In this document: positions 16,380-62,999 of the stretch, piece after piece
Layout of the letters: each line of letters begins with the position of its first letter
How positions within the stretch are numbered: position 1 is the first letter of the stretch
DNA from: Candidatus Levyibacteriota bacterium
GTDB lineage: Bacteria; Patescibacteriota; Microgenomatia; Levybacterales; UBA12049
DNA length: 64,000 bases
Reading direction: 5' to 3'
Assembly (NCBI GenBank): GCA_963716145.1
Contig: OY970292.1
Span: forward strand, 597,171-661,170
Position numbers and translations under genes: made by a program
Notes under the pieces: generated by a model
Told to the model about the DNA's origin: nothing
The model's input: the letters and a program-made list of their open reading frames with translations, nothing else
Database searches by the model: none

Positions 16380-16429
16380 ACAATTAGTATAAAGTATTTT
16401 TAGAAAGTATCAAAATGGGTTTCAACTTG

Positions 16430-16501
16430 TATCCCTGAAGGGAATCGAACCCCCATCTCGCCCTTAGGACGGGCTTGCTCTATCCATTGAGCTACAGGGA
16501 C
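16430..16501 (-). tRNA. tRNA-Arg (anticodon CCT)
   Basis: Reverse complement 'GTCCCTGTAGCTCAATGGATAGAGCAAGCCCGTCCTAAGGGCGAGATGGGGGTTCGATTCCCTTCAGGGATA'. D-arm GCTC/GAGC; anticodon loop GTCCTAA; T-loop TTCGATT; 7-bp acceptor stem with G·U at 1:72. CCA is not encoded. Confidence 0.7.
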
Positions 16502-21145: not shown

Positions 21146-21167
21146 TTGGCGAGATTATATCATAGCC

Positions 21168-22640
21168 TTACACTCCTTGTCTGTTTGTCAGCTCTCTGAG
21201 GAAAAGATTGTAATCAAACTGGTTTACTGCTCCGTCATCATCCAAATCGGATAGCAAATTATTTGCTGCGGTGCAAGAGACGGCAGGTAGGAAATCAGAA
21301 TAGCATCCCATCAAAATATTGTAATCAAGGATATTAATTACATTGTCTCCATTAATCTCACCATTTATTAACACTGTTTGAGGCATTTGATTAGTTGTTC
21401 CTGCGGTTATTGTCTGAATGCCCGGAACTAAGGATTTTAAGAACTGGTTTGTCTTTACTTTTACCGTATATGCACCGGTTACAAAAGCGCTACCCATATC
21501 AATATTCCCCGTGAATTTGCCGGAAGTTGAATTATAGTTAACAGCTCCGTCTTTTGTTGCTACCAATTGGTTCTGAGCATTGAGCACTTCAACTCGTACA
21601 TTTCTTTGTGGGTGCAATGGGTCGGGATTTCCCCCTGATGCCGGATTCGCGCTATCCCCACCCTGACCTATTCCATGAAGAAGAAGAGTTAGGGACAAAG
21701 TTGTATTACCTGGAGCCGGAGTTGATGTTGGAGTGATTGTAGGACTTGGAGTAGTTCCTCCTTCAGCTCTAGTGTGATCGTAAGAGTTTGGGTTGCTGGC
21801 ACTTCCATCTGTGTGGCATATAGGATCTCCACCGTCAATTAAACCATTGTTGTTATTGTCTCTTGAGTCAGCGCAGGTTGCTCCGTTTCCGCCCTGTTCC
21901 CCAGGTCTTGTAGGGTCGTAACTGTTGGGATTATTTGGATTATTGTCTGTGTGACAGGTTGAATCCAAATTGTCTTTGAAACCATTGTTATCGTTATCAA
22001 TGTTGTCTGAGCATCTTGAAGGAGGAGTGGTTACCGTGGGATTGACAGTCCCTTCATTTCGCGTAGGGTCATATGGATTATTTAGATTTCCACCTGTGTG
22101 ACAAGCAGGATCCCCCGCATCAATCAACTCATTCTGGTTATTGTCAATTCCATCAGCACAAGTTGCAGGAGGTGAAGTGGGTGAAGGGGTGGGGCTCGGA
22201 ACTGTAGTAGGACTTGGTGTTGGAGTTGGACTTGGGATTGGAGTTGGGGTGATCCGCATACTTCCACACGCTGCTGATGAGCTGAGATTATTACCTGTGC
22301 CGTTATTGTTGCCGGTAAGCCCCTGATGAATTGTATTGTTGTTACCGGTAAGATTACCTATCATGCCAGCACACACTTCATTACCATGCCCTGTTAAGTT
22401 CCCTATATATCTTCCTGTAATCAGATTCCCGTTCCCATACATATTCCCTTGGAAATCCCCATTTACTGTACAATTGTTAACATGCAGATCGCTTGCTCTG
22501 TTGGGACAGGTAGTTTCCGCAGCATTTGATCTTGTTTCCTGTCTTTGCTGACTGACCAAAACACCGCCGAAAAGCCCAAAAACAAGCACTATCCCTACCA
22601 ATACGGGTAATTGTTTTCTGGAGAATAATTTTTTTAGCAT
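21168..22640 (-). CDS. Secreted Cys/Asp/Asn-rich repeat protein with C-terminal dockerin-like domain (paralog 1)
   Basis: N-terminal signal anchor. Three 'C(A/S)D.IDN..N..ID.GDP.CHTD.N.NNP.SYDPTR' repeats. Pro/Thr linkers. C-terminus 'INGDNVINILDYNILM...DLDDDGAVNQFDYNLF' looks like duplicated dockerin type-I Ca-binding segments. Confidence 0.6.
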   Translation of the reverse strand: MLKKLFSRKQLPVLVGIVLVFGLFGGVLVSQQRQETRSNAAETTCPNRASDLHVNNCTVNGDFQGNMYGNGNLITGRYIGNLTGHGNEVCAGMIGNLTGNNNTIHQGLTGNNNGTGNNLSSSAACGSMRITPTPIPSPTPTPSPTTVPSPTPSPTSPPATCADGIDNNQNELIDAGDPACHTGGNLNNPYDPTRNEGTVNPTVTTPPSRCSDNIDNDNNGFKDNLDSTCHTDNNPNNPNSYDPTRPGEQGGNGATCADSRDNNNNGLIDGGDPICHTDGSASNPNSYDHTRAEGGTTPSPTITPTSTPAPGNTTLSLTLLLHGIGQGGDSANPASGGNPDPLHPQRNVRVEVLNAQNQLVATKDGAVNYNSTSGKFTGNIDMGSAFVTGAYTVKVKTNQFLKSLVPGIQTITAGTTNQMPQTVLINGEINGDNVINILDYNILMGCYSDFLPAVSCTAANNLLSDLDDDGAVNQFDYNLFLRELTNRQGV

Positions 22641-22685
22641 GGATAATTTATGTATAATTGCTACCTAATTATAAGTAGAACAGAA

Positions 22686-23586
22686 CGGGTAAGCTTTGTC
22701 AAGAATAATGCTTATACTCCCTGCCTATTTGTCAGCTCTCTGAGGAAAAGATTGTAATCAAACTGGTTTACATGACCATCGTCATCCAAATCGGCTAACA
22801 AATTATTTGCTGCAGTACAGGAAACGGCAGGCGTAAGATCGGAATAGCATCCTATCAAAATATTGTAATCAAGGATGTTAATGGTGTTGTCTCCGTTAAT
22901 CTCACCATTTATCAATGTTGTTTGAGGCATTTGATTAACTCCTCCCGCAATTATATTTTGAATACCGGGAGTTAATGCTTTTAAGAACTGATTTGTCTTT
23001 ACTTTTATGGTATAAACTCCGCTTACGAGAGTAGTCCCCGCATCAACAGTTCCTGTGAAATTACCGCCAGTTGTACTGAAATTAACTACTCCGTCTTTTG
23101 TTAAGATCAGCTGGTTCTGAGCATTGAGCACTTCAACTCGTACATTTCTTTGTGGGTGCAGTGGATGTTGATTTCCCCCTGATCCAGGATTGGCGCTATC
23201 CCCCGCACTACCAATACCGTGAAGTAGAAGATTGAAAACCAGACTCGTGTTTCCGGGAACAGGTGTTGAGGTAGGAGTTCTAGTTGGTGTAGGCGTGAGA
23301 GTTGGCGGTGTGGTTGGTGAAGTCTCATTTCTACTAGGATCGTAAGAGTTTGGATTATTTGGATTTCCGTCTGTGTGGCAGATTGGATCTCCACCGTCAA
23401 TCACACCGTTATTGTTGTTATCTCTTGAATCAGCACAGGTATTCCCTCCCCCTTGCTCTCCCGGTCTTGTAGGATCGTAGCTATTGGGATTATTTGGATT
23501 ATTGTCTGTGTGACATGTTGAATCAAAACTGTCTTTGAAACCATTGTTATCGTTATCAATGTTGTCTGAGCATCTGGAGACGGGAG
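22686..23586. repeat. ~900-bp identical direct repeat (3' halves of paralogs 2 and 3, copy 1)
   Basis: DNA identical to 24298..25198. The two copies diverge at ~23587 and ~25199. Confidence 0.85.
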
Positions 23587-24253
23587 TGGTCACTGGAGGA
23601 GTTACTGTAATAGTAAGTCTAGGAGTTACTGTAGGAATAGAGCCTTCATTTCTGGTAGGGTCATAGGTATTTGGATTGTTCTGATTGCCATCTGTGTGAC
23701 AAGCCGGATCTCCACCATCAATCAACTCATTCTGGTTATTGTCAATTCCATCAGCGCAAGTTGCTGGAGGTAGGGTGGGACTGATAGTTGCGGATGGACG
23801 TACTCCGCATGGCGTGGAAGCATTTGTGATATTTCCTGTTCCGTTTATCGGGCCGCCAACTCCTCCATGAATTATGTTGTTGTTGCCGTTTATACCACCA
23901 TTTAGTCCGCCGCAGATGTCATTGCCATTGCCGCGAATAGTCCCGTTCATTCCTCCCATTATTATATTGTTGTCACCGGTAATGTTCGCCGGGAAGCCTC
24001 CCAATCCTCCACGAATTGTATTTCTACTTCCAAAAATACTGCCATTAAAGCCGCCATCAATAGTGCAGTCATCAGCGGTCAGATCCTGACCCGGTCCAAC
24101 AGTAGTGCAGTTTCCGGTTCCTCCGCGGCCTGCAGCGCTACTTCTTTGGTCCTGCTGCTGCTGACTAACCATCACCGCGCCGAACAGGCCAAAAACCATA
24201 ACAACACCTACTAGTATCGGAAGACTAGATTTTGAAAAAAGTTTTTTTAGCAT
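22712..24253 (-). CDS. Dockerin-domain Cys/Asp-rich repeat protein (paralog 2)
   Basis: Same architecture as paralog 1. The C-terminal ~295 aa are identical to paralog 3. Confidence 0.6.
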   Translation of the reverse strand: MLKKLFSKSSLPILVGVVMVFGLFGAVMVSQQQQDQRSSAAGRGGTGNCTTVGPGQDLTADDCTIDGGFNGSIFGSRNTIRGGLGGFPANITGDNNIIMGGMNGTIRGNGNDICGGLNGGINGNNNIIHGGVGGPINGTGNITNASTPCGVRPSATISPTLPPATCADGIDNNQNELIDGGDPACHTDGNQNNPNTYDPTRNEGSIPTVTPRLTITVTPPVTTPVSRCSDNIDNDNNGFKDSFDSTCHTDNNPNNPNSYDPTRPGEQGGGNTCADSRDNNNNGVIDGGDPICHTDGNPNNPNSYDPSRNETSPTTPPTLTPTPTRTPTSTPVPGNTSLVFNLLLHGIGSAGDSANPGSGGNQHPLHPQRNVRVEVLNAQNQLILTKDGVVNFSTTGGNFTGTVDAGTTLVSGVYTIKVKTNQFLKALTPGIQNIIAGGVNQMPQTTLINGEINGDNTINILDYNILIGCYSDLTPAVSCTAANNLLADLDDDGHVNQFDYNLFLRELTNRQGV

Positions 24254-24297
24254 AAATTAACTATATTAAAATTGGCCTAACTATAGTAGAACAGATA

Positions 24298-25198
24298 AAA
24301 TTATACTTTGTCAAGAATAATGCTTATACTCCCTGCCTATTTGTCAGCTCTCTGAGGAAAAGATTGTAATCAAACTGGTTTACATGACCATCGTCATCCA
24401 AATCGGCTAACAAATTATTTGCTGCAGTACAGGAAACGGCAGGCGTAAGATCGGAATAGCATCCTATCAAAATATTGTAATCAAGGATGTTAATGGTGTT
24501 GTCTCCGTTAATCTCACCATTTATCAATGTTGTTTGAGGCATTTGATTAACTCCTCCCGCAATTATATTTTGAATACCGGGAGTTAATGCTTTTAAGAAC
24601 TGATTTGTCTTTACTTTTATGGTATAAACTCCGCTTACGAGAGTAGTCCCCGCATCAACAGTTCCTGTGAAATTACCGCCAGTTGTACTGAAATTAACTA
24701 CTCCGTCTTTTGTTAAGATCAGCTGGTTCTGAGCATTGAGCACTTCAACTCGTACATTTCTTTGTGGGTGCAGTGGATGTTGATTTCCCCCTGATCCAGG
24801 ATTGGCGCTATCCCCCGCACTACCAATACCGTGAAGTAGAAGATTGAAAACCAGACTCGTGTTTCCGGGAACAGGTGTTGAGGTAGGAGTTCTAGTTGGT
24901 GTAGGCGTGAGAGTTGGCGGTGTGGTTGGTGAAGTCTCATTTCTACTAGGATCGTAAGAGTTTGGATTATTTGGATTTCCGTCTGTGTGGCAGATTGGAT
25001 CTCCACCGTCAATCACACCGTTATTGTTGTTATCTCTTGAATCAGCACAGGTATTCCCTCCCCCTTGCTCTCCCGGTCTTGTAGGATCGTAGCTATTGGG
25101 ATTATTTGGATTATTGTCTGTGTGACATGTTGAATCAAAACTGTCTTTGAAACCATTGTTATCGTTATCAATGTTGTCTGAGCATCTGGAGACGGGAG
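24298..25198. repeat. ~900-bp identical direct repeat (copy 2)
   Basis: See 22686..23586. Confidence 0.85.
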
Positions 25199-25865
25199 TT
25201 GGTGTTGGTGTTATAGTTGGCCTCAATGTTGGAGTAGGTGTGCTGGTTGGAATCCTAGTTGGGGTTGGAGTAGGTACGCGGCTAGGAGTTGGTGTTGGAA
25301 GATTAACCTCAGATCTGTGAGAGTCATATGAGTTGGGATTGTCCTGGTTACCGTCAGTATGGCAGGCAGGATCACCTCTATCAATCAGTTCATTTTGGTT
25401 ATTGTCAATTCCATCAGCGCAAGTTGTGGGTGGTGGCGTTGGCGAAGAGGTTGGAGTTATATATGGATTGGGCGAGCATCCGCCAATGTTGGCCACTTGC
25501 CTTGCAGTATTACCGCTTCCACGCATACTTCCTAAAACATTATTTCCAACATGATTGTTATCCCCTGTCACACAACCCGCGACATTATTCCCAATTCTAT
25601 TACCATTACCGAATACATTTCCTACATTATTTGTTATATTGTTATTATTTCCAATCAAATACCCAGAAACATTAACTGCAGTACAGTTATCGGCGATTAG
25701 ATCCCCATTCGTATTTGCGCTGCAATTGCCGGCAGCATTTGATCTTGTTTCCTGTCTTTGCTGACTGACCAAAACACCGCCAAAAAGCCCAAAAACCAAA
25801 AGAACGCCGGCAACAATTGAAAATTTTGTTCCAAATGAAAGATTTTTGAGGCTGTAAAAACTCAT
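24324..25865 (-). CDS. Dockerin-domain Cys/Asp-rich repeat protein (paralog 3)
   Basis: Same architecture. Divergent N-terminal ~215 aa. Confidence 0.6.
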   Translation of the reverse strand: MSFYSLKNLSFGTKFSIVAGVLLVFGLFGGVLVSQQRQETRSNAAGNCSANTNGDLIADNCTAVNVSGYLIGNNNNITNNVGNVFGNGNRIGNNVAGCVTGDNNHVGNNVLGSMRGSGNTARQVANIGGCSPNPYITPTSSPTPPPTTCADGIDNNQNELIDRGDPACHTDGNQDNPNSYDSHRSEVNLPTPTPSRVPTPTPTRIPTSTPTPTLRPTITPTPTPVSRCSDNIDNDNNGFKDSFDSTCHTDNNPNNPNSYDPTRPGEQGGGNTCADSRDNNNNGVIDGGDPICHTDGNPNNPNSYDPSRNETSPTTPPTLTPTPTRTPTSTPVPGNTSLVFNLLLHGIGSAGDSANPGSGGNQHPLHPQRNVRVEVLNAQNQLILTKDGVVNFSTTGGNFTGTVDAGTTLVSGVYTIKVKTNQFLKALTPGIQNIIAGGVNQMPQTTLINGEINGDNTINILDYNILIGCYSDLTPAVSCTAANNLLADLDDDGHVNQFDYNLFLRELTNRQGV

Positions 25866-25927: not shown

Positions 25928-27658
25928 TTACATTTTTGAAGGAGCTTCTATTCCTAGAAGATTCAGGCCTTTTTTAATCACTTCTCCTGTTTTGGATGTT
26001 AGAGCCAAACGAAAATCTTTACTCCCCTCCTCGGCCTTTAAAATTTGATGTTTTTGATAAAAAAGATTAAAACCTTGAGCAAGCTCAAAAAGATATGTCG
26101 CTACAGCACTCGGGCTCAACCTCTCCGCAGCCTCAATGATTACATCGTCAAATTTTGCCAGCAAACGAAGTAGCTCTCTCTCCTCAGGTTCAAATTCTCC
26201 TTTGAAATTGGAAATTGGAAATTGGAAATTGGAAATTCCTGCTTTTAGCAGCACACTCTGTGTGCGAGCATAAACATACTGTATATATGGTCCTGAATTT
26301 CCATCAAAGCTAATTGACTCTTCCAAATCAAATGCAATCTCCTGCTGTGTCGAAACTTTAAGAAATGAATATTTTACTGCAGCGACTGCAACCTTCTCGG
26401 CAATAATTTTTTGTTCCTCTTTTGTATAGTCTGATGCATTTTTATCTAGAATATCAATTATTTCTTTTTTTGCTTCATCAATGAGCCAATCTCCCAATAT
26501 CACGTTTCCGGATCTTGAGTTCATTTTACCGTGTTTTAGCTTGACCCACCCATAAGCCAAATGTTTCTCCTTACCACGCGTCTCCGGAAAAAGCTGAGCG
26601 AGCGCTTCAAAAACAACCTGAAAGTATCCCGACTGTTCAGGACCCACAACGTGGATAATCAAATCAGGATTATTTTCTTCAAATTGCAATGGCCCGAGCC
26701 CCATATCCTTGCCTTCGTAGGTTGGATTTCCCTCACTCGTAATAAATACTCTGTCATGAAGACCAAATTTTTTGCCGGGGAAAATAATCGCCCCATCGCT
26801 TTTTTCAAAAACTCCTTTTGTAAGCCCCTTCAAAACATTTTCTTTACCGGTCTCATATACCTCACTCTCAAAATAATAGCGGTCAAAATGAGCGTAAACT
26901 CTTTTGTAAATTTGTTCAAAGTAATCAAGGCTCCACTGCCTAGTGGTTTGGTAAAGCTCCCAAATAGACTTGTCTTTTGCATAGATTTTTTTGTTGATTT
27001 CACCAATTTCTTTTTTCGCATCCGGATTTTCTTCATAAGCTTTACTGCCTGCTGCATACGCTTTACCCAATAAATTAATTTTCTGTTCTAAGTTTAATTC
27101 TGAATTCTGAATTCTGAATTCTGAATTCTGCAAAATGCCGTACAGGCATTTTGCAATATGCATTCCAACATCTCCCTGATAATTTCCGCGGACTACTTTT
27201 GCACCCACAGCCTCAAGTAAACGCACAATTGACTCGCCGGTCGCAATATTGCGCAGATGACCGATGTGAAACGCTTTGTGGGTATTTGGGTGAGCAAATT
27301 CAACCAATATTTTCTTACCGGTAAGAGAAGTTTTATTTTTTTTACTATCTAAGTCTGTCAAACTATCAATTAGTGTATCATTTGAGATCCAAAAATTGAT
27401 AAACCCCGGCTTTACGACTTCCATTTTTTCAAAAATCCTTAATTCTTTATTCTTACTTCTTAATTCTTCTGAGATTTCCTCCCCCAACTCCATAGGATTT
27501 TTACCAAGTTTTTTACCTGCAACCAATGCTATGTTACTGGAATAATCCCCATGTTTTGGATCAGCCGGATAGTCGACTTTGACCTCAATATCACCCAATC
27601 CTATTTTTTCCAGAATTTCACCTAATTCTTCTTTTATTGTTTGTTTAATCATAATCAC
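25928..27658 (-). CDS. argS: Arginine--tRNA ligase
   Basis: 576 aa. 'HIGHLRN' class-I motif. The C-terminal anticodon-binding domain ends in '...APSKM'. Contains two in-frame heptamer microsatellites. Confidence 0.85.
   Translation of the reverse strand: MIMIKQTIKEELGEILEKIGLGDIEVKVDYPADPKHGDYSSNIALVAGKKLGKNPMELGEEISEELRSKNKELRIFEKMEVVKPGFINFWISNDTLIDSLTDLDSKKNKTSLTGKKILVEFAHPNTHKAFHIGHLRNIATGESIVRLLEAVGAKVVRGNYQGDVGMHIAKCLYGILQNSEFRIQNSELNLEQKINLLGKAYAAGSKAYEENPDAKKEIGEINKKIYAKDKSIWELYQTTRQWSLDYFEQIYKRVYAHFDRYYFESEVYETGKENVLKGLTKGVFEKSDGAIIFPGKKFGLHDRVFITSEGNPTYEGKDMGLGPLQFEENNPDLIIHVVGPEQSGYFQVVFEALAQLFPETRGKEKHLAYGWVKLKHGKMNSRSGNVILGDWLIDEAKKEIIDILDKNASDYTKEEQKIIAEKVAVAAVKYSFLKVSTQQEIAFDLEESISFDGNSGPYIQYVYARTQSVLLKAGISNFQFPISNFKGEFEPEERELLRLLAKFDDVIIEAAERLSPSAVATYLFELAQGFNLFYQKHQILKAEEGSKDFRLALTSKTGEVIKKGLNLLGIEAPSKM
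26204..26238. repeat. Tandem heptamer (gaaattg)x5 inside argS, encoding 'GISNFQFPISNF'
   Basis: Perfect 7-bp tandem repeat that keeps the reading frame. Confidence 0.9.
27096..27130. repeat. Tandem heptamer (aattctg)x5 inside argS, encoding 'QNSEFRIQNSEL'
   Basis: Perfect 7-bp tandem repeat that keeps the reading frame. Confidence 0.9.
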
Positions 27659-28962: not shown

Positions 28963-30153
28963 TTACTGAGCAAATACTTCTTGAATAATTACCAGTGCTT
29001 CATCGATTTCCTTTTTAGAGACGTTGATTGGAGGCAAAAATCTAATTGTATCCGTACTTGATAAGGCGGCAATGAGTCCTACGTCCTGCATTTTTTTAAC
29101 GTAAGGTGTAGTTTTTTCCGAAAGCTCGATGCCAAGCATCAGTCCTTTGCCTTTTATTTTTACAATTACTGGGTTTTCCAATTTTTTAAGTTCCTCAAGG
29201 AAATATTTACCCATTTCTTTCGCGTTCTCAAGTAACTTTTCTTTCTTAATCTGCCTTATTACCTCAGTTGCCGCAGCACAAGCTAATGGAGATCCGCTAA
29301 ATGTACCTCCATGACCGCCTTTTGTCATCAAATCACCTACTTCTCTGGTGCTCATAACAAATCCAAAAGGTATTCCGTATGAAAAACTTTTTGAGAAGCA
29401 GGCAATATCCGGCACAACTCCGTACTGATCGGACGCGAGCCAACTTCCGGTCCTGATCGCGCTTTGTACCTCATCAAAAATAAGAAGAATACTCTTTGAT
29501 AGACAGAATTCTTTTAGTTCGCTTAAATAATTTTCATTGGGCAAAATCACTCCTGCCTCTCCCTGAATCGGCTCAACAATAACCGCCGCCGTGTTGCCAT
29601 TTATATTTTGTTTTACTGCTTCAATATCATTGAATCGAACATGAACAACATCTTTATTTATAAATGCCATGTAGTTTTTTTTGTACAATTCCGAGGCTGT
29701 AACAGACAGGCTGCCTAGTGATTTTCCATGATACGCGTTAGTTACTGCGACAAATCCGCTCTTGCCCGTTGCTGTCATTGCGAGTTTTAACGCGGCATCA
29801 ATTGATTCGGCTCCGGAGTTGGTAAAAATTATCTGCGTAAGATTTGCTGGAAGGATAGCGCTTAGTTCATTAATAAACTCCGCCCGCTTATCAGAATAAA
29901 ATGTCTGATGAGTTGAGGGAAGTGTCGTAAGTTGTTGACTAATCGCTGATGTAACTGAAGGATTTGTATATCCGAGAATATTGACCCCGATATTGGTCAT
30001 AAAATCCAGATACTTTTTACCGTCCGTATCATAAACATATGTTCCTTGTCCACGCTCCAAAGCGATCCCCCGCTTTGGGTAAAGCTTTACTTCGGATGTA
30101 TTTTCCAGATCGCTGATTTGTTTAAGATTCATAAATATGAGTTCCTCCCCCAT
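28963..30153 (-). CDS. argD: Acetylornithine/[LysW]-ornithine aminotransferase (class III PLP)
   Basis: 'LIFDEVQSAIRTGSW' and the 'CFSKS' lysine region. 396 aa. Confidence 0.8.
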   Translation of the reverse strand: MGEELIFMNLKQISDLENTSEVKLYPKRGIALERGQGTYVYDTDGKKYLDFMTNIGVNILGYTNPSVTSAISQQLTTLPSTHQTFYSDKRAEFINELSAILPANLTQIIFTNSGAESIDAALKLAMTATGKSGFVAVTNAYHGKSLGSLSVTASELYKKNYMAFINKDVVHVRFNDIEAVKQNINGNTAAVIVEPIQGEAGVILPNENYLSELKEFCLSKSILLIFDEVQSAIRTGSWLASDQYGVVPDIACFSKSFSYGIPFGFVMSTREVGDLMTKGGHGGTFSGSPLACAAATEVIRQIKKEKLLENAKEMGKYFLEELKKLENPVIVKIKGKGLMLGIELSEKTTPYVKKMQDVGLIAALSSTDTIRFLPPINVSKKEIDEALVIIQEVFAQ

Positions 30154-30940
30154 TTAATGCTGCGCTAATAGGGTTTTCAACCCTGCCATCCGTAATTATT
30201 ATTTTCCCAATCCCTAGATCTAAAAGCTTACTACATTCCAAAAGTTTTCTCTTCATCCGCCCGCTAACAATGTTGACTAACTCATCTAAATTTCCTTTAT
30301 TAACCTCTTTAATCAGAGAACTCTCGTCATTGAGATCTTTCAAAATACCCGGTGCTTCTATCAGGAACAGGAGAACTTCGGATTTAAAATCAGTAGCAAT
30401 TTTTGAAGCAATCTTATCCCCGTCCACATTTATAACCTCTCCCTCCTGAGTAATCACAGGCGGAGTAATTACAGGAATTATTCCTTTGTCCAAAAATAAA
30501 TTGAGCAGGTCCAAATTAATACTTTCAACATTTCCCGTCAGATCATCTTTCACAACTTTTTTCTTATCTCCCTCAACAGTAATTAAAGCCTCATGTTTTT
30601 TGCCAACTATTAATCGCCCGTCAACTCCAGATAAGCCAATCGCGTTAACACCGGATTTTAATAACGACTCAACTATTTTTTTATTCGCAAGCCCCGCGTA
30701 AGTCATGTACATCAACTCAATCGTTTCGCGTGTTGTATAGCGGCTGGTCATTCCTGAGGGTAAAGTGAGCATCTTTTTTTCAATACCAAGCTTCTGGCTA
30801 TAGAAATCCAAATAATAATTTCCGCCGTGAATAATAATAAATTTTTTATCCTGAGCTTGCCGAATGGACTGAATAGCAATATCGGAACTTATTGACTGGA
30901 GGTTAAGTGATTTGCCACCGCCGATTTTAATAACTATCAT
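30122..30940 (-). CDS. argB: Acetylglutamate/[LysW]-glutamate kinase (amino-acid kinase family)
   Basis: 'VIKIGG', 'IIHGG', 'NVDGD' motifs. Confidence 0.75.
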   Translation of the reverse strand: MIVIKIGGGKSLNLQSISSDIAIQSIRQAQDKKFIIIHGGNYYLDFYSQKLGIEKKMLTLPSGMTSRYTTRETIELMYMTYAGLANKKIVESLLKSGVNAIGLSGVDGRLIVGKKHEALITVEGDKKKVVKDDLTGNVESINLDLLNLFLDKGIIPVITPPVITQEGEVINVDGDKIASKIATDFKSEVLLFLIEAPGILKDLNDESSLIKEVNKGNLDELVNIVSGRMKRKLLECSKLLDLGIGKIIITDGRVENPISAALNGGGTHIYES

Positions 30941-30952
30941 AATTTTTAAGTT

Positions 30953-31999
30953 CTAAACCGGGTAAAGTCCGATCGTCTCAAGACCCAGATTTTCATCAAA
31001 CCCTTGAGCGATATTGAAACATTGCACAGCCTGTCCGGCGGCACCTTTTATCAGATTATCAATTGCCGACATCACAACCAGGCGGTTTGAATGCGGATCT
31101 TTTTCAAATCCAATCTCGCAAACATTTGTCCCGATCAGCAACTTTGGCTCAGGATATTTGAAGTTCCCTTTCTTCTCCTTAACTATACGGATGAAAGGCT
31201 TATCTTTGGCAAACTCGCGGTAAATGCCCCAGATATCAATTTCCGAGACATTCTCTTTGAGAAAAACATGAGATGTCGCAAGTATTCCTCTTACCGCCTC
31301 AACCGCGGTTGCTGAGAAATTAATTTGCGGCTTTTTCCCATCAATTGTCAGCTCCTGAATTATTTCAGCCGAATGTCTGTGCCCAGTCGGAGCAAATGAG
31401 CGCATTACGCCTGATCGCTCAGCATGCATTGAAGCCTTGGATAACTTATTCCCTGACGCGGAAGAGCCTGTTTTGGCCTCGATTATGATCGGCGCGTCAT
31501 CTACAACTCCCGCTTTGAGGAGTGGGTACAAACTTAAAATCGAAGCCGTAGACATACATCCGGGACAGGCGATAAGATGAGCGCTTTTAATTTGCTCTTT
31601 ATAAAGTTCAGGCAAGCCTAGCACTTTGCTCTTGAGCAAATCAGGATTTGGATGATCCAATTTATACCAGGTTGGATAATCTCCCGGATTATCCAGTCTG
31701 AAGTCCCCACTCAAATCAATAACTGTTTTGGCAATTGGCAGAAGATCATTTATCTGGTTCATGCCGATGCCATGCGGCAGGCAAAGAAACAACACATCGC
31801 ATTTTTCCAGATCTTTTATCGAAACAAATTTATTGCTGAACTGCCTTAAGTTTGGGTGGATTGTTTTTATGAACTGACCTTGATTTGTCTCAGACGTTGC
31901 TTGATGCAGATTCACATTCGGATGCTTGAGTAAGAGTCTCAAGAGCTCCCCTCCTACATAACCCGATGCGCCGATTACTGATACATTAATTTTTTCCAT
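30953..31999 (-). CDS. argC: N-acetyl-gamma-glutamyl-phosphate / [LysW]-glutamyl-phosphate reductase
   Basis: 'VSVIGASGYVGGELLRLL' NAD(P)-binding fold. Catalytic Cys region 'ACPGC'. Confidence 0.8.
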   Translation of the reverse strand: MEKINVSVIGASGYVGGELLRLLLKHPNVNLHQATSETNQGQFIKTIHPNLRQFSNKFVSIKDLEKCDVLFLCLPHGIGMNQINDLLPIAKTVIDLSGDFRLDNPGDYPTWYKLDHPNPDLLKSKVLGLPELYKEQIKSAHLIACPGCMSTASILSLYPLLKAGVVDDAPIIIEAKTGSSASGNKLSKASMHAERSGVMRSFAPTGHRHSAEIIQELTIDGKKPQINFSATAVEAVRGILATSHVFLKENVSEIDIWGIYREFAKDKPFIRIVKEKKGNFKYPEPKLLIGTNVCEIGFEKDPHSNRLVVMSAIDNLIKGAAGQAVQCFNIAQGFDENLGLETIGLYPV

Positions 32000-32852
32000 A
32001 TTTTAAAACATACTCAACCATCAACTTAGCGATATTTACATCTGATACATCATTTAACCCATGGAATTCAGGCGTAGTATTTACCTCAAAAACAAGATAT
32101 TTATTATCATGCTCCACCAGATCGACTCCGGCAATTTCAACTCCCAAAACATCAACTATATTCTTGCACAGATCTATTATGTCTTTATTCAAATCCAGTT
32201 TCTGAGGAATCCCGCCTTTTGCGGTGTTGGTCAGCCAATGGGTAGATGCTCTATACATCGCGGCGACCGGTTCGCCTCCGATCACAAATACCCGTAGGTC
32301 ACGATCCGGCTTTTTGATATACTGCTGGATATAAAATATCGAATGCTGCGGTCCGCCGAGTCCTTCCTTATGATCCATAATAGCCTCCAAATCCGACTCT
32401 GAACTAATTTTTGAGACAAGTCTTCCCCATGAGCCCCAGACCGGTTTTATAACAATCGGATAGCCGATTTCTGAGGCGGCTTGAAGAGCCATTGATTGTG
32501 AAAACGCGATTTTGGTAATGGGAACCGGTATACCTTTTTGTTCAAGGAGTTGTGTTGAAAGAATCTTGTTATTGCAAAGTGTTGTGGCAGCGCCTGAATT
32601 AATCGTCCTGACACCCATCGCTTCCAGATAATCAACAATCAGCTCGGCCCTTGTCTGCCCTATTTCGCGGTTGAGAACCAGATCAACTCCTTCAAAATCC
32701 AAAGTAGCAGAACTTAAGATAATTTTCCGAGGATCAATCTGCACTACCTCAATATTCTTTTTGGCGAATTCCTGAAACAACAATTTCTCCTCAATTCTGA
32801 TTTTCGAACACAAAATACCTACCTTCATGACACTTCGCTTTTCATCTTTCAT
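31986..32852 (-). CDS. lysX: RimK/LysX-family ATP-grasp ligase (glutamate--LysW ligase ArgX/LysX)
   Basis: ATP-grasp fold, ~288 aa, immediately downstream of lysW. Confidence 0.7.
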   Translation of the reverse strand: MKDEKRSVMKVGILCSKIRIEEKLLFQEFAKKNIEVVQIDPRKIILSSATLDFEGVDLVLNREIGQTRAELIVDYLEAMGVRTINSGAATTLCNNKILSTQLLEQKGIPVPITKIAFSQSMALQAASEIGYPIVIKPVWGSWGRLVSKISSESDLEAIMDHKEGLGGPQHSIFYIQQYIKKPDRDLRVFVIGGEPVAAMYRASTHWLTNTAKGGIPQKLDLNKDIIDLCKNIVDVLGVEIAGVDLVEHDNKYLVFEVNTTPEFHGLNDVSDVNIAKLMVEYVLKYGKN

Positions 32853-32930
32853 GTTAATTTTAAACCTTTCCTAATTCTCATAACGCAATTAAGCTTCACG
32901 TCATGATCCTGAGCTTGCCGAATGGACATA

Positions 32931-33122
32931 TTATTGTCCCCAATCTTCCTGCGCGACAGGCGCCAGGGTGAGCTTAATTGGATTCACTTCAACAACCTCC
33001 AAATCAGTACTGCACTCAGGACAAGTTATAACTTCTCCTACCTGAGTATCTTTCTCAACAGTAATTTCTCCATGACAATCCAGGCATTTTGTTTTTGTGT
33101 TATCTAAAATTTGATCATTCAT
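32931..33122 (-). CDS. lysW: LysW/ArgW amino-group carrier protein
   Basis: 63 aa. Two CxxC pairs ('CLDCHG', 'CPEC') and a C-terminal 'EDWGQ' (LysW 'EDWGE' tail). Confidence 0.8.
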   Translation of the reverse strand: MNDQILDNTKTKCLDCHGEITVEKDTQVGEVITCPECSTDLEVVEVNPIKLTLAPVAQEDWGQ

Positions 33123-39757: not shown

Positions 39758-40279
39758 TTAATTGCAATTGTAGTAGCAAAATTCAATTTTCCCTATTATA
39801 CTTTCTTTTTTAATAAATCCAAATTCTCTTGAATCAGCACTGAATGGCCTATTGTCTCCCAAAATAAAGTACTGATTTTCAGGAACAGTAACACTTTGCT
39901 CTTCTTTGAGAAAGGTTCCACCATATGTTTTTTCGCCACTTTTGAGATATGAGTTTTCATCAAGCTTATTATTGTTCAGATAAACATCGCCGCTCTTTAT
40001 ACTAAGAGTGTCACCGGGAAGCCCGATGACTCTCTTTATAATATCTTTGTTAGGATCCAATGGGGCATGGAGAACTATAGCATCTCCTCTTTGCGGTGCA
40101 TTGTAGGCTATTTTTCGGGCTAGAATGTATTGGCCCTTCGTATATTTTGGAGCCATTGAATCTCCAGCGACTTGAAAAGGACGAAAGAAGAAAAAATATG
40201 TAATTAAGAAAAATGCCGAAAGCGCGCTAATTAAAATCACAAAAAGAGTGAAGCCAAATAAAATAGACCGTATCTTCAT
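39758..40279 (-). CDS. lepB: Signal peptidase I
   Basis: 'GDSMAPK' Ser box and 'GDNRPFSADSREFG' box E. Confidence 0.85.
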   Translation of the reverse strand: MKIRSILFGFTLFVILISALSAFFLITYFFFFRPFQVAGDSMAPKYTKGQYILARKIAYNAPQRGDAIVLHAPLDPNKDIIKRVIGLPGDTLSIKSGDVYLNNNKLDENSYLKSGEKTYGGTFLKEEQSVTVPENQYFILGDNRPFSADSREFGFIKKESIIGKIEFCYYNCN

Positions 40280-40364: not shown

Positions 40365-41627
40365 CTATTTTTTCCAGACCCAGATTTCCGGGCCGCCTTG
40401 GTGATTTGAGGACTTCAAAACTTCCACCACATCAAACTGTGGTATTTTGTCCAGCGACATCCCAATCTCTTTATATGCATCGCGGAATGGCATTCCTTTT
40501 TTCACCAAAAGATACGCAGCGTGCGCCGCGAACATATCCGGCGTGCAGGATTTTAACAATACGTCTTCGTTGGGGGTAAGATTTTCAAGAACCAATTTCA
40601 CGATCCCGATTGAGTCGCGTGTGATATCAACGCAATCAATAAAAAGCTCTTTTGTCTCGCCAAAATCTACGTTATAGCCCGATGGCAAACCGGCAACAAT
40701 TGAAGCAGCCGTCTGCTCATGTCCCACAACCATGTGGGATCTGGCCCGCAAAACTTCCATAATATCCAAATTTTTCTTCTGAGGCATGATGCTTGAGCCT
40801 GAAAGAAGTGAATCATCAACCGTAAAGAAATTGTATTCACTGGTCGTAAAAAGCAGCAAATCCTGAGCAAATCTGGATAATGTCAGCATTGTCTGGGTAA
40901 GAACGTGCATAACCGCGAGCTGAAATTTGACTCTGCCCGCTTGAGTATAAAGAGTATTGTTCTGGACTTTGGCAAAGCCAAGCATATCCGACACAAGAGT
41001 TCTGTTGATAGGAAGTGAAACTCCGTACGCAGCCCCAGCGCCAAGCGGTGACTGATCGGTGATGATAAAAGCACTCTTCAGAAGTATCAGATCATCAATT
41101 ATTGATTCGGCAAAGCTCCCCATCCACATTCCCACACTTGAGGGCATTGCCTTTTGCATGTGAGTGTAGCCGGGCATTGGGACAAATTCATAGCGCACAG
41201 CCATTTTCTGAAATGCCAGAACCAGATCCGAGGCCGCTTCAAAAATCCCGAAAAGTTCTTCTTTGGCAAAAAGCCGCAAATCTAAAATAACTTGGTCATT
41301 TCTTGACCTTGCAGTGTGGATCTTTTTGGCAGGCTCGCCCACTTTTTCAGTCAGAAAATTTTCGATTTTGGTGTGAACATCCTCGTCATGTGAGTCTATT
41401 GTGAACTCACCTTTCTCATCTAACCGTATGATTTCAAGCAGCTCTTTTTTTAATGACTCAAACTCTTCAGGAGTCAAAATACCGATAGTTGAGAGCATTT
41501 TGGCATGAGCAATCGAGCCCAAGGCATCGGCTTTTACAAGCCGAGTGTCCAGCACGGCGCTGCGCGCAAAGCAATACATCTCAGCCAATTCATTTTGAGT
41601 ATAATTTTTATGCCAAAGTTTTTTCAT
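40365..41627 (-). CDS. argH: Argininosuccinate lyase
   Basis: 'GSSIMPQKKNLD' fumarate-lyase signature. N-terminal 'DALGSIAHAKML'. Confidence 0.8.
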   Translation of the reverse strand: MKKLWHKNYTQNELAEMYCFARSAVLDTRLVKADALGSIAHAKMLSTIGILTPEEFESLKKELLEIIRLDEKGEFTIDSHDEDVHTKIENFLTEKVGEPAKKIHTARSRNDQVILDLRLFAKEELFGIFEAASDLVLAFQKMAVRYEFVPMPGYTHMQKAMPSSVGMWMGSFAESIIDDLILLKSAFIITDQSPLGAGAAYGVSLPINRTLVSDMLGFAKVQNNTLYTQAGRVKFQLAVMHVLTQTMLTLSRFAQDLLLFTTSEYNFFTVDDSLLSGSSIMPQKKNLDIMEVLRARSHMVVGHEQTAASIVAGLPSGYNVDFGETKELFIDCVDITRDSIGIVKLVLENLTPNEDVLLKSCTPDMFAAHAAYLLVKKGMPFRDAYKEIGMSLDKIPQFDVVEVLKSSNHQGGPEIWVWKK

Positions 41628-41640
41628 ATTTACTTATCTT

Positions 41641-41690
41641 ATCACAATAAAAAAACCGTCTCTGTAAATATCTGATATTTAGATACTTAC
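41641..41690 (-). terminator. Rho-independent terminator / T-box terminator hairpin
   Basis: Minus strand: 'gaccgtccttgtaag...cagagacggttttttt'. The stem is ccgtc/gacgg plus an inner palindrome, followed by a T7 run. It sits just 5' of argH. Confidence 0.55.
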
Positions 41691-41905
41691 AAGGACGGTC
41701 ATTCTTTTACCGTGGTACCACCTTGTTTCTCCGCCAGCTGGCGGACTCATTTATCTTTTACAGTTTTGTCTCTGTAGAGCATTTTTTGCTCTCTGCGTTC
41801 TCCTTCTGAAACCTTGGTGAAAGAGGATCCCGGATCGCGACTTCGGTTTTCATCCCTCATAGCTTTAGCGACGTGGGACAAACGCATTTAATCTTTAATT
41901 GTTAA
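41691..41905 (-). promoter_or_regulatory. T-box-like leader upstream of argH
   Basis: Minus strand contains 'AACAAGGUGGUACCACGGUAAAAG' (T-box core AGGGUGGNACCGCG) immediately 5' of the terminator. There is an 'AGAGAG' element upstream. A possible specifier region 'GAAGGAGAA' contains the Arg codon AGG. Confidence 0.5.
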
Positions 41906-41906
41906 A

Positions 41907-41935
41907 ATTATACCAGTCTGACCACAAAATGTCAA
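41907..41935 (-). promoter_or_regulatory. Consensus sigma-70 promoter driving the argH leader
   Basis: Minus strand TTGACA (41930-41935), 17-nt spacer, TATAAT (41907-41912). Confidence 0.6.
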
Positions 41936-59690: not shown

Positions 59691-60269
59691 ATGACAAACA
59701 ATTTATTAACGATTCAAAAAGCCGCGGAATTATTGGGTATTTCTACCAGAACTCTAAAGCGCTATGAGGAGAGAGGTCTCATAACACCCCAGCGCACTCC
59801 CGGAGACCAGCGTAGATATACACTAGAGGACATTGAAATATTGTCCAAGCGCACAAATGGAAATATAGCTCCTTCTTCAGTAATCGCTCCAGTGGCACAA
59901 TCAGTAGAATCACCACATTTAGCTTCCCAAACCAGGTCAGCAAAGCGTGTCTTCTGGTATCTGCTCATTCTCTTGCTGCTGATAGGAGGAAGCTATTGGA
60001 TTTTAAAAACTAACACAGATGCTCTGCGTGAGCAGCAGGCACAAAACCAGTTGGAGCAGCAGGCACTTGAGGATAAGGTGGATAAGTTAAGAGGTAATTC
60101 CTATACTTCCAACCTAACAGCCAAAGATCTCAGAGTAGCCCAGAATATAAGTACGCAGGATCTGCTTGTTGAGAACAACCTGACTGTTGGGGGAAGCTCC
60201 AACTTACAATATCTGAATGTGTCTGGAGGCACTACCCTGGCAAATCTGACTGTTACAAATGGCCCCTAA
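59691..60269 (+). CDS. MerR-type HTH, transmembrane helix and coiled-coil segment; probable N-terminus of the downstream giant protein
   Basis: 'LLTIQKAAELLGISTRTLKRYEERGLITPQR...RRYTLEDIEIL' (MerR/HTH_17-like), then 'VFWYLLILLLLIGGSYWIL', then 'NLTVGGSSNLQYLNVSGGTTLANLTVTNGP*'. The frame two positions over continues without a stop into ORF 60359. Confidence 0.5.
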   Translation: MTNNLLTIQKAAELLGISTRTLKRYEERGLITPQRTPGDQRRYTLEDIEILSKRTNGNIAPSSVIAPVAQSVESPHLASQTRSAKRVFWYLLILLLLIGGSYWILKTNTDALREQQAQNQLEQQALEDKVDKLRGNSYTSNLTAKDLRVAQNISTQDLLVENNLTVGGSSNLQYLNVSGGTTLANLTVTNGP

Positions 60270-61645
60270 ACCTTCCCAACGGCTCAATTGATAACTCGGA
60301 ATTAGTCAATTCAACCCTAACCTACAATGCGGGAAGCGGTTTAACAGGTGGAGGAATCTTGGCACTTGGCGGAACAGCGACTTTTGACATTGGAGCGGGA
60401 AATGGCATACAGGTTGAGGATGACAAAATAAGCGTTATATACGGCGAAAGCGCCAATACTTCGGTTGTGGGTAATCAAACCATTGAGATTGCAGCCGGAA
60501 GCAATCTAGCTGGTGGCGGAGTACTCACTCTTGGTGCGGGAGGAACACTGACTCTTGAGACTATATCAAACCCTATATTTTCCACATCAGTTACCTCTCC
60601 CCTTCTATATCTGACTAACTCGGGCTTTACTACAGTTCTTCAAACTACGACTTTGACTGCTGATCAAACCATTACACTTCCTGATGATACCGGAGAGGTC
60701 TGTATCTCAACCGGTAATTGCGCGGGACTTGGCGGTACTATAGCAGGTGCAGGTACGCCAAATCGAGTTGCAAAATTCAATACTTCGAGTACTATAAGCG
60801 ATTCCAGCATCAATGATCTATATTCTGCAGTTGCTATGACAATTGATGCATCCGGGAACGTGGGAATCGGCAATACAGCTCCTTCTTATCAACTTGAGGT
60901 AGGAAGCGGAGCTTTCGGAGCTGGCAGGCTTAACCTGAATGGGTCTCAGCCATTCCTGAGAATCCAGGATACCGACGCCGGCTTTGCCACAAACTGGCTT
61001 TTTCAGGCTTTCAATAACCGCCTGCGGCTTCTCAATAATGACGGTGCTACAGAGCCTCTCTCAATATTGACCAATGGCAACGTGGGCATCGGAACGACAG
61101 CACCCTTGAGTAATTTTCATGTATCAAGCGCTACTGGCACAACAGGAAATATCCTTCTGGATACTTATGGAGGAAACGGACAGGTAAGCATTAGGAGGGC
61201 TAACGGCACACCATCAAGTCCTACCGCAGTTCTAAGCGGTGAAGGCATTGGGGCTTTCGGGGCACGAGGTTATGGTGCTACAGGATTTAGCGGTGGCAAT
61301 AGAGCGCGTATTCTTTTCTCAGCTGCTGAGAACTGGACTGACACAGCTCAGGGAACATTCTTGGATCTACAGACCACACCTACCGGGAGCACTACTATTA
61401 CCAGCCGATTGCGGATTACTGCAGATGGCAACGTGGGTATTGGCACTAATACCCCATCCTCCTTCAAACTCGAAATAGCAGGCAACATCGGGCCTGAGGC
61501 GGATAATACTCGCAACCTGGGATCGGCTATCAGACGCTGGGCGAATATTTATGCGACCAACATAACTGGCGCAGTTACTCCCACAGGATTTACTCCAGGA
61601 AGTGTCGTCTTCGCGGGTACGGGTGGTCCACTTAACACAAAATAA
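60262..61645 (+). CDS. Giant repeat protein (second locus), segment 1 (frame open from ~60262; ORF 60359..61645)
   Basis: GNVGIGTT modules and 'FKLEIAGNIGPEADNTRNLGSAIRRWANIYATNITGAVTPTGF', paralogous to 421..600. Confidence 0.65.
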
Positions 61646-62999
61646 CGCGAATTTCTTCTGGGATGATTCAAATGCCAGATTGGGGATAGGGACAACTGCG
61701 CCTAGTACGCAGTTAAATATTGTAGCTAATGGATCATCTGCTCAAGCTCATATTGATACTTATGGAAATAGTAATGCTACTGTACTTTCTTTAAGGCGTG
61801 CCAAAGGGTCTTTCACTACGCCTACTGCTGTTATTTCCGCAGATTTGCTTGGAAGATTAAGTTTCCGCGGTTATGATGGCAGCGCATTCTCCAATAACAG
61901 AGTAAGCATAGATGGTTCAGCTGCCGAAGCATGGACAACGGGCGCCAATGGTACTTACTTGAGCTTTCTTACTACCTCACTGGGAACAACCACAACTTCT
62001 GAAAGAATGCGCATCGATGCCACCGGCAATGTGGGGATCGGGACGACAGCGCCTGGATACAGCCTGGAAGTATTACGGGATGGGAGCACTGCGAATTTAG
62101 GTTTGACCAATTATGGTTCGGTGACTCCCGCCATAAACGGGCGCCGCGCAAGAGGAAGTGTCGCTTCTCCTTTGGCTCTGGCAGTAGATAATGGCATACT
62201 CAGCCTGAATGGTGGCGGATATGATGGAACAAGCTTCACTGATATTGGTGCTCGCATTTTATTTTCTGCTGCAGAAGCATGGACCGTAAGTACCCATGGA
62301 ACATATATGCGGTTTGATACAACACCAATTGGGAGCACAACCGTAGCTGAGCGTATGCGGATAGACGCAGCCGGCAACGTGGGAATCGGCACCGTGACCC
62401 CAACGTCCTTCAAACTTGAAGTTGCTGGCAATGTAGGACCTGAGGCGGATAATACCCGGGACTTGGGAAGCGCATCGCGACGATGGGCCAACATATATGC
62501 TACCAATTTTGTCGGAGCCATTACCCCAACAGGATTTACCCCAGGTTCAGTAGTCTTTGCCGGCCCGGGAAGAAGCCTTTCTCAGGATAATCCCAACTTC
62601 TTCTGGGATGATACAAATAACAGGTTGGGTATAGGGACCACTGCGCCTGCGGGAATTTTGGATCTCACGGGTTCAGCGGGAGTGACCCAAAATCTGACCA
62701 GAAGCTCCGCAGATACTAGTGCGGCAAATATCCGATTCAGAAAAGACCGTGTCGCCGCCATTGTGCAAAACGGTGATGAATTGGGATACCTCGATTTTAG
62801 TGGATATGACGGCGGGACATATAGGAGAGGTGCTTATATTGCGTCATTTGTAGATGGTGTTCCCGGCGCATCTGATATGCCGGGGAACTTGGCTTTTGCC
62901 ACCACTCCAGATGGTGCTGTAGCTTCGATAGAGCGTATGAGAATAACCAATGCCGGCAACGTAGGGATCGGGCACCACCGCGCCTGCGGCACTTCTTGA
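61602..62999 (+). CDS. Giant repeat protein (second locus), segment 2
   Basis: The junction with segment 1 needs a 1-nt correction near 61628 ('cttaAcac'). Same repeat family. Confidence 0.65.
   Translation: MSSSRVRVVHLTQNNANFFWDDSNARLGIGTTAPSTQLNIVANGSSAQAHIDTYGNSNATVLSLRRAKGSFTTPTAVISADLLGRLSFRGYDGSAFSNNRVSIDGSAAEAWTTGANGTYLSFLTTSLGTTTTSERMRIDATGNVGIGTTAPGYSLEVLRDGSTANLGLTNYGSVTPAINGRRARGSVASPLALAVDNGILSLNGGGYDGTSFTDIGARILFSAAEAWTVSTHGTYMRFDTTPIGSTTVAERMRIDAAGNVGIGTVTPTSFKLEVAGNVGPEADNTRDLGSASRRWANIYATNFVGAITPTGFTPGSVVFAGPGRSLSQDNPNFFWDDTNNRLGIGTTAPAGILDLTGSAGVTQNLTRSSADTSAANIRFRKDRVAAIVQNGDELGYLDFSGYDGGTYRRGAYIASFVDGVPGASDMPGNLAFATTPDGAVASIERMRITNAGNVGIGHHRACGTS

Follow-up and report, generated by a model that had tools for sequence, protein, structure and literature searches.

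The gene argH of an uncultivated, ultrasmall Candidatus Levyibacteriota bacterium, which codes for argininosuccinate lyase, is preceded by a leader of 266 nucleotides (nt) that probably serves as a T-box riboswitch, and the present text concerns this leader, its proposed mechanism and its counterparts in related genomes. The whole stretch of DNA analysed, called the window, comprises 64,000 nt (assembly GCA_963716145.1, contig OY970292.1, positions 597,171 to 661,170), and positions are given in its own numbering. An earlier reading of this DNA from its letters alone (the sequence-only reading) had placed a consensus promoter, a T-box and a terminator upstream of argH. All of the sequence features which it listed are present, and promoter, T-box core, hairpin and U7 run stand in the geometry claimed, on the minus strand like all features of the leader (Table 1).

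An RND efflux pump gene has its stop codon 10 nt before the start of the promoter, which is the sole 12/12 TTGACA-17-TATAAT match within a scan of 7.4 kb. Hexamers resembling a promoter are found at the same relative place in the related loci L001, L002, L003 and L033, where labels of this type denote individual loci among the 160 argH loci that were fetched for comparison. Transcription is predicted to start near 41900. At the other end of the leader, 20 nt separate the U7 run of the terminator from the ATG of argH (41627), with no evident Shine-Dalgarno sequence in this interval. Model R1, to which the table refers, is a covariance model of the 5' domain of the leader, built from the relatives alone with the window left out.

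Table 1. Features of the argH leader and associated genes, in window coordinates; energies are predicted values, bp denotes base pairs and R1 is the model described in the text.
Feature	Position	Strand	Remarks
Sigma-70-type promoter TTGACA-17-TATAAT	41907..41935	-	12/12 match; extended -10 TG
Base helix, 5' strand UGCGUU	41881..41886	-	part of the conserved 5' motif AAAUGCGUUUG; equivalent of the 5' strand of a kink-turn (K-turn)
Hairpin 1, GUCCC[ACGUCGCUAAAGCUAUGA]GGGAU	41852..41879	-	absent in L001-L003; -9.4 kcal/mol
Specifier hairpin, CCGAA-GUCGCGA-UCCGG	41830..41846	-	heptaloop 41841..41835; candidate codon CGC 41839..41837
Hairpin 3, CUCUUUC[ACCAAGGUUUCA]GAAGGAG	41800..41825	-	-5.3 kcal/mol; holds most of GAAGGAGAA
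Base helix, 3' strand AACGCA	41794..41799	-	from the fold, the alignment of relatives and model R1
Stem II, GAGAGC-AAAAAAU-GCUCU(A)C	41774..41793	-	6 bp, A-rich loop, bulged A; aligned by Rfam and R1
Stem IIA, CAG-AGACAAAA-CUG, then F-box-like GUAAAAG	41761..41774	-	pairs covary AU/GC
Stem III, GUCCGCC-AGCU-GGCGGAG	41729..41746	-	-11 kcal/mol; Rfam alignment
T-box core, AACAAGGUGGUACCACGG	41727..41710	-	bulge UGGUACC at 41720..41714
Antiterminator	41689..41726	-	A1 ACAAGG/CCUUGU; 7-nt bulge UGGUACC 41720..41714; A2 ACGG/CCGU; Rfam alignment
Intrinsic terminator hairpin and U7	41649..41699	-	-21.2 kcal/mol; U7 at 41655..41649
argH (argininosuccinate lyase), gene under leader control	40365..41627	-	TIGR00838, 327 bits against a cut-off of 279.5
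lepB	39758..40279	-	85 nt after argH
tRNA-Arg(CCU) gene	16429..16501		about 25 kb from the leader; sole tRNA of the window

T-box core, antiterminator and terminator

The core of the window (AAGGUGGUACCACG) agrees at 12 of 14 positions with the T-box consensus AGGGUGGNACCGCG, as quoted in PMC11297988. The antiterminator has the canonical layout, in which 6 bp and 4 bp enclose a UGGNACC bulge, and the UGGU of this bulge would pair with the 3' ACCA of an uncharged transfer RNA (tRNA) carrying A at position 73 (A73). The 3' strand of the antiterminator (CCGUCCUUGU) is used again in the 5' arm of the terminator, and the two folds are therefore mutually exclusive. Folding of the 266-nt leader as a whole gives a z-score of -6. 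A platform for the sequestration of a Shine-Dalgarno sequence was not found in the window, which has a GC-rich hairpin and U7 instead. In five relatives (L029, L038, L050, L064 and L128), the 3' arm of the terminator holds GGAG or GAGG and the U-run abuts the ATG of argH (last ~25 nt); a dual action is therefore possible in those relatives, whereby the hairpin might act as terminator and at the same time conceal the ribosome-binding site.

Conservation among Microgenomates

The nearest ArgH sequences are proteins of metagenome-assembled genomes of the Candidate Phyla Radiation (CPR)/Microgenomates, at identities of 88% (Ca. Levyibacteriota), then 84%, 71% and 67%; among metagenome contigs, none was closer than 63%. 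Dozens of Microgenomates genomes keep the features described above in front of argH. About 50 distinct leaders among the 160 loci contain a canonical antiterminator (6-bp A1, UGGNACC, A2 of at least 3 bp), nearly always followed by a stable hairpin and a U-run, and other leaders carry bulge variants ending in ACA, AAA or AUC. The T-box leaders of Microgenomates are placed upstream of argH or of an operon containing it. In the roughly 50 canonical leaders, the variable position of the bulge is only U or C, so that position 73 of the tRNA should be A or G, which we take to fit tRNA-Arg.

Covariation was assessed in an alignment of 17 leaders, against 500 shuffles and against slid controls. Of its cells, 95.8% are paired, compared with 26-47% in the slid controls, and compensatory changes occur at 15 of 23 pairs, including all five pairs of the Stem I hairpin and five of the six in Stem II; none of the 500 shuffles reaches the observed values of pairing and covariation. 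The A1 and A2 pairs of the antiterminator are conserved or covarying in the 17 aligned leaders, as they also are in the larger set of about 50.

Two models recognise the leader. When E-value thresholds were used in place of the gathering score, the Rfam T-box family RF00230 was the sole non-tRNA match in the whole window, aligned over its full model length at 41869..41688, with an E-value of 4.7e-9 on 451 nt and of 6.6e-7 when the whole window was searched with all 4227 families. Model R1 gave a single match in the 64 kb (41888..41754, 44.4 bits, E ~1e-8), treating the 82 nt between the two GC strands of the window as an insertion. The Rfam alignment sets the 5' end and K-turn on AAAGCUAUGA, inside hairpin 1; this placement was rejected, since the relatives and model R1 give AAAUGCGUUUG at 41888. 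Conserved sequence and structure, covariation, a significant T-box match and mutually exclusive folds thus back the claim of the sequence-only reading that a T-box-type, tRNA-dependent transcription attenuator precedes argH.

The decoding domain and its specifier

A compact 5' domain is common to L001-L003 and about 20 other leaders, consisting in order of AAAUGC-GUUUG, a 5-bp hairpin with the loop [G/C]UCGC[G/A]N, GA-GC, Stem II, and Stem IIA followed by GUAAAAG. In the base helix, the GC/GC pairs are invariant in 15 of 15 relatives, and the 5' end of model R1 aligns there. A textbook K-turn (GC-GUU-GA...GA-GC) is seen in L003 and near-K-turn variants in other relatives; in the window this motif is interrupted on both strands, by hairpins 1 and 3. 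The loop of the 5-bp hairpin is conserved in at least 20 leaders while its stem varies, and the loop of the window agrees with the consensus at 7 of 7 positions. The AAAU of the Stem II loop is invariant across the aligned leaders. A loop-to-linker pseudoknot pairing (IIB) covaries, as judged by eye, in L125, L129, L136, L149 and L049, and is not clear in the window.

Further elements were observed in the relatives. In many leaders (L033 2860-2890, L130 ~860-890, L029 and L089 among them), a conserved hairpin that is absent from the window lies between Stem IIA/B and Stem III, with a covarying stem around UG-UCG-GNAA-CGG-AG, whose GNAA tetraloop stands on a conserved internal loop; it seems to take the place of Stem III in L125, L130, L132 and L144. 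The locus L134 (1335..1503) keeps the decoding module (heptaloop GUCGCGA, Stem II, IIA and GNAA hairpin) without T-box sequence or antiterminator, and a Stem III-like hairpin with U6 directly abuts its ATG.

The specifier of the window is most likely the arginine codon CGC in the heptaloop G-U-CGC-G-A, which resembles an anticodon loop in having U at the U-turn position, CGC as the central triplet and then a purine. Other argH leaders have CGA, AGA, AGG or CGC at their rule-defined specifier positions, which are Arg codons throughout, in a context that differs with the style of Stem I: CCU-CGA-G or CU-AGA-G in short stems with an internal loop; U-CGA-G or U-CGA-A in pentaloops; GAA-CGA-G, GAAA-CGC-A, GAAG-AGA-G or GAAG-AGG-G in long canonical stems; and CGCA in a covarying 6-bp stem with a tetraloop. 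Judging from these sequences, arginine appears to be the only reading consistent across all leader styles. A register of N-GAG (Glu) in the internal-loop (group-C) leaders was rejected, as L058, L128, L137 and the 7-nt loops fit only Arg. So was the Stem II motif UAGGAGAAA of the group-B leaders as a specifier, as it varies to UAGAAGAAA and UAAGAGAAA.

The codon CGC would be read by tRNA-Arg(ICG/ACG or GCG). A scan of 60 loci for tRNA-Arg(ACG/GCG) found only one tRNA-Arg(CCU). In L089, the argH T-box leader is preceded, ~120 nt upstream, by a gene for tRNA-Arg(CCU) (322..396) whose CCA end is encoded. Both visible tRNA-Arg genes, that of L089 and that of the window, have A73, and both T-boxes read UGGU.

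Inserted hairpins and other candidate specifiers

Compared with L001, the window carries two inserted hairpins which flank the conserved specifier hairpin. The base helix UGCGUU/AACGCA and the three hairpins together give a four-way-junction model of -23.3 kcal/mol. Hairpin 1 contains a recurrent module, UCGC-UAAA-GCUA. This module, UCGC-(A)UAAA-GCUA with a C.U mismatch and an A-rich loop, is found in the window (41852..41879), L005 (56-73), L038 (2805-2822) and L082 (~1205-1235), at insertion points that differ between the 5' side of Stem I, its 3' side, its tip and the tip of Stem II, and it behaves like a portable RNA module. The specifier loop of the window holds in turn a perfect 6-nt palindrome, UCGCGA, which would in principle allow loop-loop dimers between leaders or pairing with hairpin 1.

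These properties raise an alternative in which the CGU/CGC in the loop of hairpin 1 (ACGUCGCU) is used instead of, or together with, the heptaloop, or in which hairpin 1 masks or dimerises the palindromic heptaloop and so tunes the access of the tRNA. The GUCGC of hairpin 1 is complementary to the GCGAU of the specifier hairpin, and the minimum free energy (MFE) structure forms exactly that pairing; four leaders contain the module, each at a different point; and UCGC or UCGA loops are likewise exposed by insertions that L068, L070 and L125 carry at this 5' site. Yet the module is absent from most leaders and, folding alone into a stable hairpin, has its CGU and GC paired, and no covariation was found for a loop-loop contact between hairpin 1 and the heptaloop. 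Such a role for hairpin 1 is an unlikely one.

Hairpin 3 bears on the specifier that the sequence-only reading had proposed, namely AGG in GAAGGAGAA (41806..41798), matched to the tRNA-Arg(CCU) encoded in the window. Under this alternative, the T-box is the same and AGG (or AGA) is read by tRNA-Arg(CCU) (or UCU). The segment does hold both AGG and AGA, the latter as AGA-A directly before the CGCA of the base helix, much as in the rule of codon, purine and helix. A tRNA-Arg(CCU) with A73 is present in the window, the same kind of gene precedes the leader of L089 by 120 nt, and the long canonical argH leaders, too, have AGA or AGG after GAAG and before G. However, the AGG segment lies in a lineage-specific insertion that is missing from most relatives, including L001, L002 and L003 (71-88% ArgH identity) and most group-A leaders, where the whole switch is kept. 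Unrelated hairpins occupy the same position in L130 and L132, and in L082, the sole relative with a homologous insertion (GA-[CUCCUUCG...CGAAGGGG]-AAC-GC), the corresponding GAAGGGG forms the 3' strand of a stem of 8 bp. In the window itself, the AGG site is predicted to pair with CUCUUUC, and the conserved heptaloop is retained. Being part of an inserted hairpin, and a stem strand in L082, GAAGGAGAA is therefore very unlikely to be the specifier, and there is no basis for the link to tRNA-Arg(CCU), the conserved candidate being CGC; the tRNA gene itself is present where the sequence-only reading had located it.

Proposed mechanism and its assessment

In the interpretation that we consider likely, the argH leader is a T-box riboswitch that senses the charging of tRNA-Arg through a CGC specifier in an apical loop, and controls read-through into argH and probably lepB. 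Transcription would begin at the consensus promoter, and the 5' half of the leader would form a reduced decoding module in which a short hairpin as Stem I is joined by Stem IIA/B and by a Stem II that is likewise short and has an A-rich loop; in the window, the two extra hairpins would elaborate Stem I into a four-way junction. The anticodon of tRNA-Arg (ICG/ACG or GCG) would pair with CGC. When the tRNA is uncharged, its 3' ACCA would pair with UGGU and stabilise the antiterminator, so that RNA polymerase would read through. A charged tRNA would not make this second contact, and the more stable terminator with U7 would form and stop transcription 20 nt before the ATG. Read-through would reach argH and probably lepB; no terminator-like site is seen in the 85-nt gap between the two genes. 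The identity of the tRNA, the CGC specifier and the direction of regulation would follow from the established T-box mechanism (PMC7583486, PMC11297988). The loop-loop contact of two 7-nt U-turn loops may compensate for the lack of an elbow platform. We further infer a role for the A-rich loop of Stem II, whose invariant adenines may compensate for the lack of an S-turn.

Several observations weigh against this interpretation. The RF00230 score of the leader, 45.9 bits, is half of the gathering score of 93, and an Rfam scan of the window at the gathering threshold reported only tRNA and no T-box. The leader has no AG bulge, distal loop or tRNA-elbow platform, and its Stem I is a 5-bp hairpin; transcriptional T-boxes generally need a long Stem I and an elbow platform, and a short Stem I goes with translational control (PMC7583486). 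Stem II is without a recognisable S-turn, and GAA...AGUA is not found in this subgroup of leaders. The specifier hairpin of the window has an A.C mismatch and is weak when taken alone (-0.6 kcal/mol). The unconstrained MFE fold, at -26.0 kcal/mol, engages this hairpin in the pairing with hairpin 1 described above; local hairpins should form first during transcription, and the competing fold is a real uncertainty. Finally, the window contains no tRNA-Arg with the anticodon ACG or GCG, and the heptaloop can also be read as GCG+A (Ala).

The low Rfam score is shared by the relatives, whose leaders score 33-45 bits with RF00230 and all fall below the threshold; it therefore characterises the clade and does not point to decay, and standard annotation would miss the leader. 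The sequence-only reading had named a sub-threshold Rfam score as grounds for giving up the T-box, and by that rule of its own it fails; the finding stands nonetheless, because the comparative evidence rescues the leader. That reading had also set store by a recoverable Stem I, specifier and antiterminator, of which the antiterminator was recovered, whereas a canonical Stem I was not, there being no distal platform and the specifier lying in an apical loop. The long Stem I with its elbow platform is a mark of the class I subtype, not of the family as a whole, because accepted actinobacterial T-boxes are also without the platform (PMC7583486).

If the heptaloop were read as GCG followed by the canonical purine A, the leader would sense tRNA-Ala, and L041 (GCA+A) and L103 (GCC) also offer Ala codons. 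The chance of this is remote. The regulated gene is argH, and the internal-loop and pentaloop leaders allow Arg only (UCGAA in L058, GAACGAG in L038 and L064, GAAACGCA in L137). The purine rule is broken by L040 and L136 (GCG+U) and by L055 and L076 (GCG+C), and it is CGC that fills the central three positions of the 7-nt loop. Moreover, tRNA-Ala has A73, and many group-A leaders have UGGC, implying G73.

It is equally hard to credit that the leader is a decaying or non-functional T-box remnant, with argH either constitutive or always terminated. The two large insertions in Stem I, the A.C mismatch in the specifier stem and the sub-threshold Rfam score would agree with decay, and L134 is an example of a derivative without discriminator, but the heptaloop, Stem II loop, IIA, T-box bulge, A1/A2, terminator and U7 are all intact in the window, and the relatives score equally low. 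Ribosome-mediated attenuation by an Arg-rich leader peptide has next to nothing in its favour and was rejected: the AUG in AAAUGCG (41885) opens a 46-codon open reading frame (ORF) with seven Arg codons that ends just before Stem III, and L001 and L002 have an open frame from the same AUG, but this AUG is not conserved, AAAGCG or AGAGCG standing in its place in relatives, the frame in L003 stops after two codons, the ORF has no Shine-Dalgarno sequence, and conservation in the leader region tracks RNA pairing with compensatory changes and not codons.

Gene neighbourhood

Downstream of argH lie lepB, carA, carB and argF, and further on a LysW-type arginine gene set and argS. The genes of the LysW-carrier type (28963..33122 and 25928..27658, minus strand) comprise a LysX/ArgX-like ATP-grasp ligase, argC, a LysZ-like kinase and a LysJ/argD-like transaminase, and a zinc-ribbon ORF of 63 amino acids (aa) at 32931..33122 ends in EDWGQ, as LysW does. 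The argS gene adjoins this set, and a T-box leader was not found before it. No further T-boxes were found in the window, where the count of TGGNACC is at chance level.

The window is not uniform in composition, having a G+C content of ~48-49% at its ends (1..8000 and 60001..64000) as against 36-43% in the middle, and its left end is dominated by an ORF of 1688 aa (1073..6139). Four consecutive large ORFs on the minus strand (394, 490, 513 and 513 aa; 19961..25865) have no NCBIfam match at E <= 1e-10, and the two of 513 aa may be paralogues.

Significance and comparison with known T-boxes

The sequence-only reading had thought a T-box on an arginine-biosynthesis gene noteworthy. Such a placement is ordinary in itself, and it is the lineage and the architecture that are unusual. 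A search of a limited set of papers found none linking T-boxes with CPR/Patescibacteria, and an earlier description may exist. The regulatory RNAs of CPR/Patescibacteria are almost uncharted, and the argH leader provides a clear and widely conserved case in which both the ligand, tRNA-Arg, and the output, arginine synthesis (by a LysW-type pathway in this genome), can be predicted. A single gene here presents a natural series of Stem I designs, from the long canonical form through intermediate internal-loop, pentaloop, heptaloop and tetraloop forms.

A broader proposition is more tentative, and we put it forward as a possibility that may well not hold: the Microgenomates (CPR) would carry a large, undescribed radiation of Arg-specific T-boxes missed by standard models, many of which would terminate transcription while reading the tRNA through a minimal heptaloop "kiss" and an A-rich Stem II loop, with neither elbow platform nor S-turn. 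The window would add to this a second, CGC-bearing hairpin able to pair with the specifier loop, which could mask it internally. If true, this would contradict the view that T-boxes acting during transcription depend on the elbow contact to capture the tRNA quickly. The argH leaders also show that curated thresholds hide a whole branch of the T-box family. The combination of a minimal decoding module and an intrinsic terminator makes the supposed requirement for the elbow platform directly testable, and the compact 5-bp specifier hairpin could serve the engineering of small tRNA sensors.

Judged by every criterion of the discriminator domain, and by the comparative evidence, the argH leader is a real T-box in a stripped-down structural variant. 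It resembles the class I transcriptional T-boxes of Firmicutes (B. subtilis tyrS and glyQS; RF00230) in its T-box sequence, its 7-nt UGGNACC bulge between A1 and A2 and its competing terminator with a U-run, as well as in Stem III, the Stem IIA/F-box-like element, a codon-like specifier and a place directly upstream of an amino-acid gene. [quoted passage not shown]

A short Stem I with an apical-loop specifier is an established T-box design (PMC7583486). It is represented by the "ultrashort" Stem I T-boxes of actinobacterial ileS (Sherwood et al. 2015 and Battaglia et al. 2019, as summarised in PMC7583486 and PMC11297988), which the same summaries describe as translational and Ile-specific, acting by sequestration of the Shine-Dalgarno sequence and using a Stem II S-turn to latch the codon-anticodon duplex. 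The argH leader resembles the ileS T-boxes of M. smegmatis and M. tuberculosis in having a short Stem I with no elbow platform, an apical-loop specifier and a decoding module of Stem I, Stem II and IIA/B; the K-turn directly below the specifier of the ileS T-boxes has a textbook counterpart in L003, and the IIB pairing is visible in several relatives. It differs from them in its intrinsic terminator, its apparent Arg specificity, its CPR host, the lack of a recognisable S-turn in its subgroup, and the two extra hairpins of the four-way junction.

Arg-specific T-boxes of Firmicutes are said to control arginine-related genes, reportedly in work of Vitreschak and colleagues from 2008, and they have the canonical long Stem I that the argH leader has not. 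In TBDB, Arg specifiers prefer 3'-C and 3'-A (PMC7778990). The proposed specificity for tRNA-Arg is what the argH leader would have in common with these Firmicutes T-boxes, and both CGC and CGA fit the preference for 3'-C or 3'-A.

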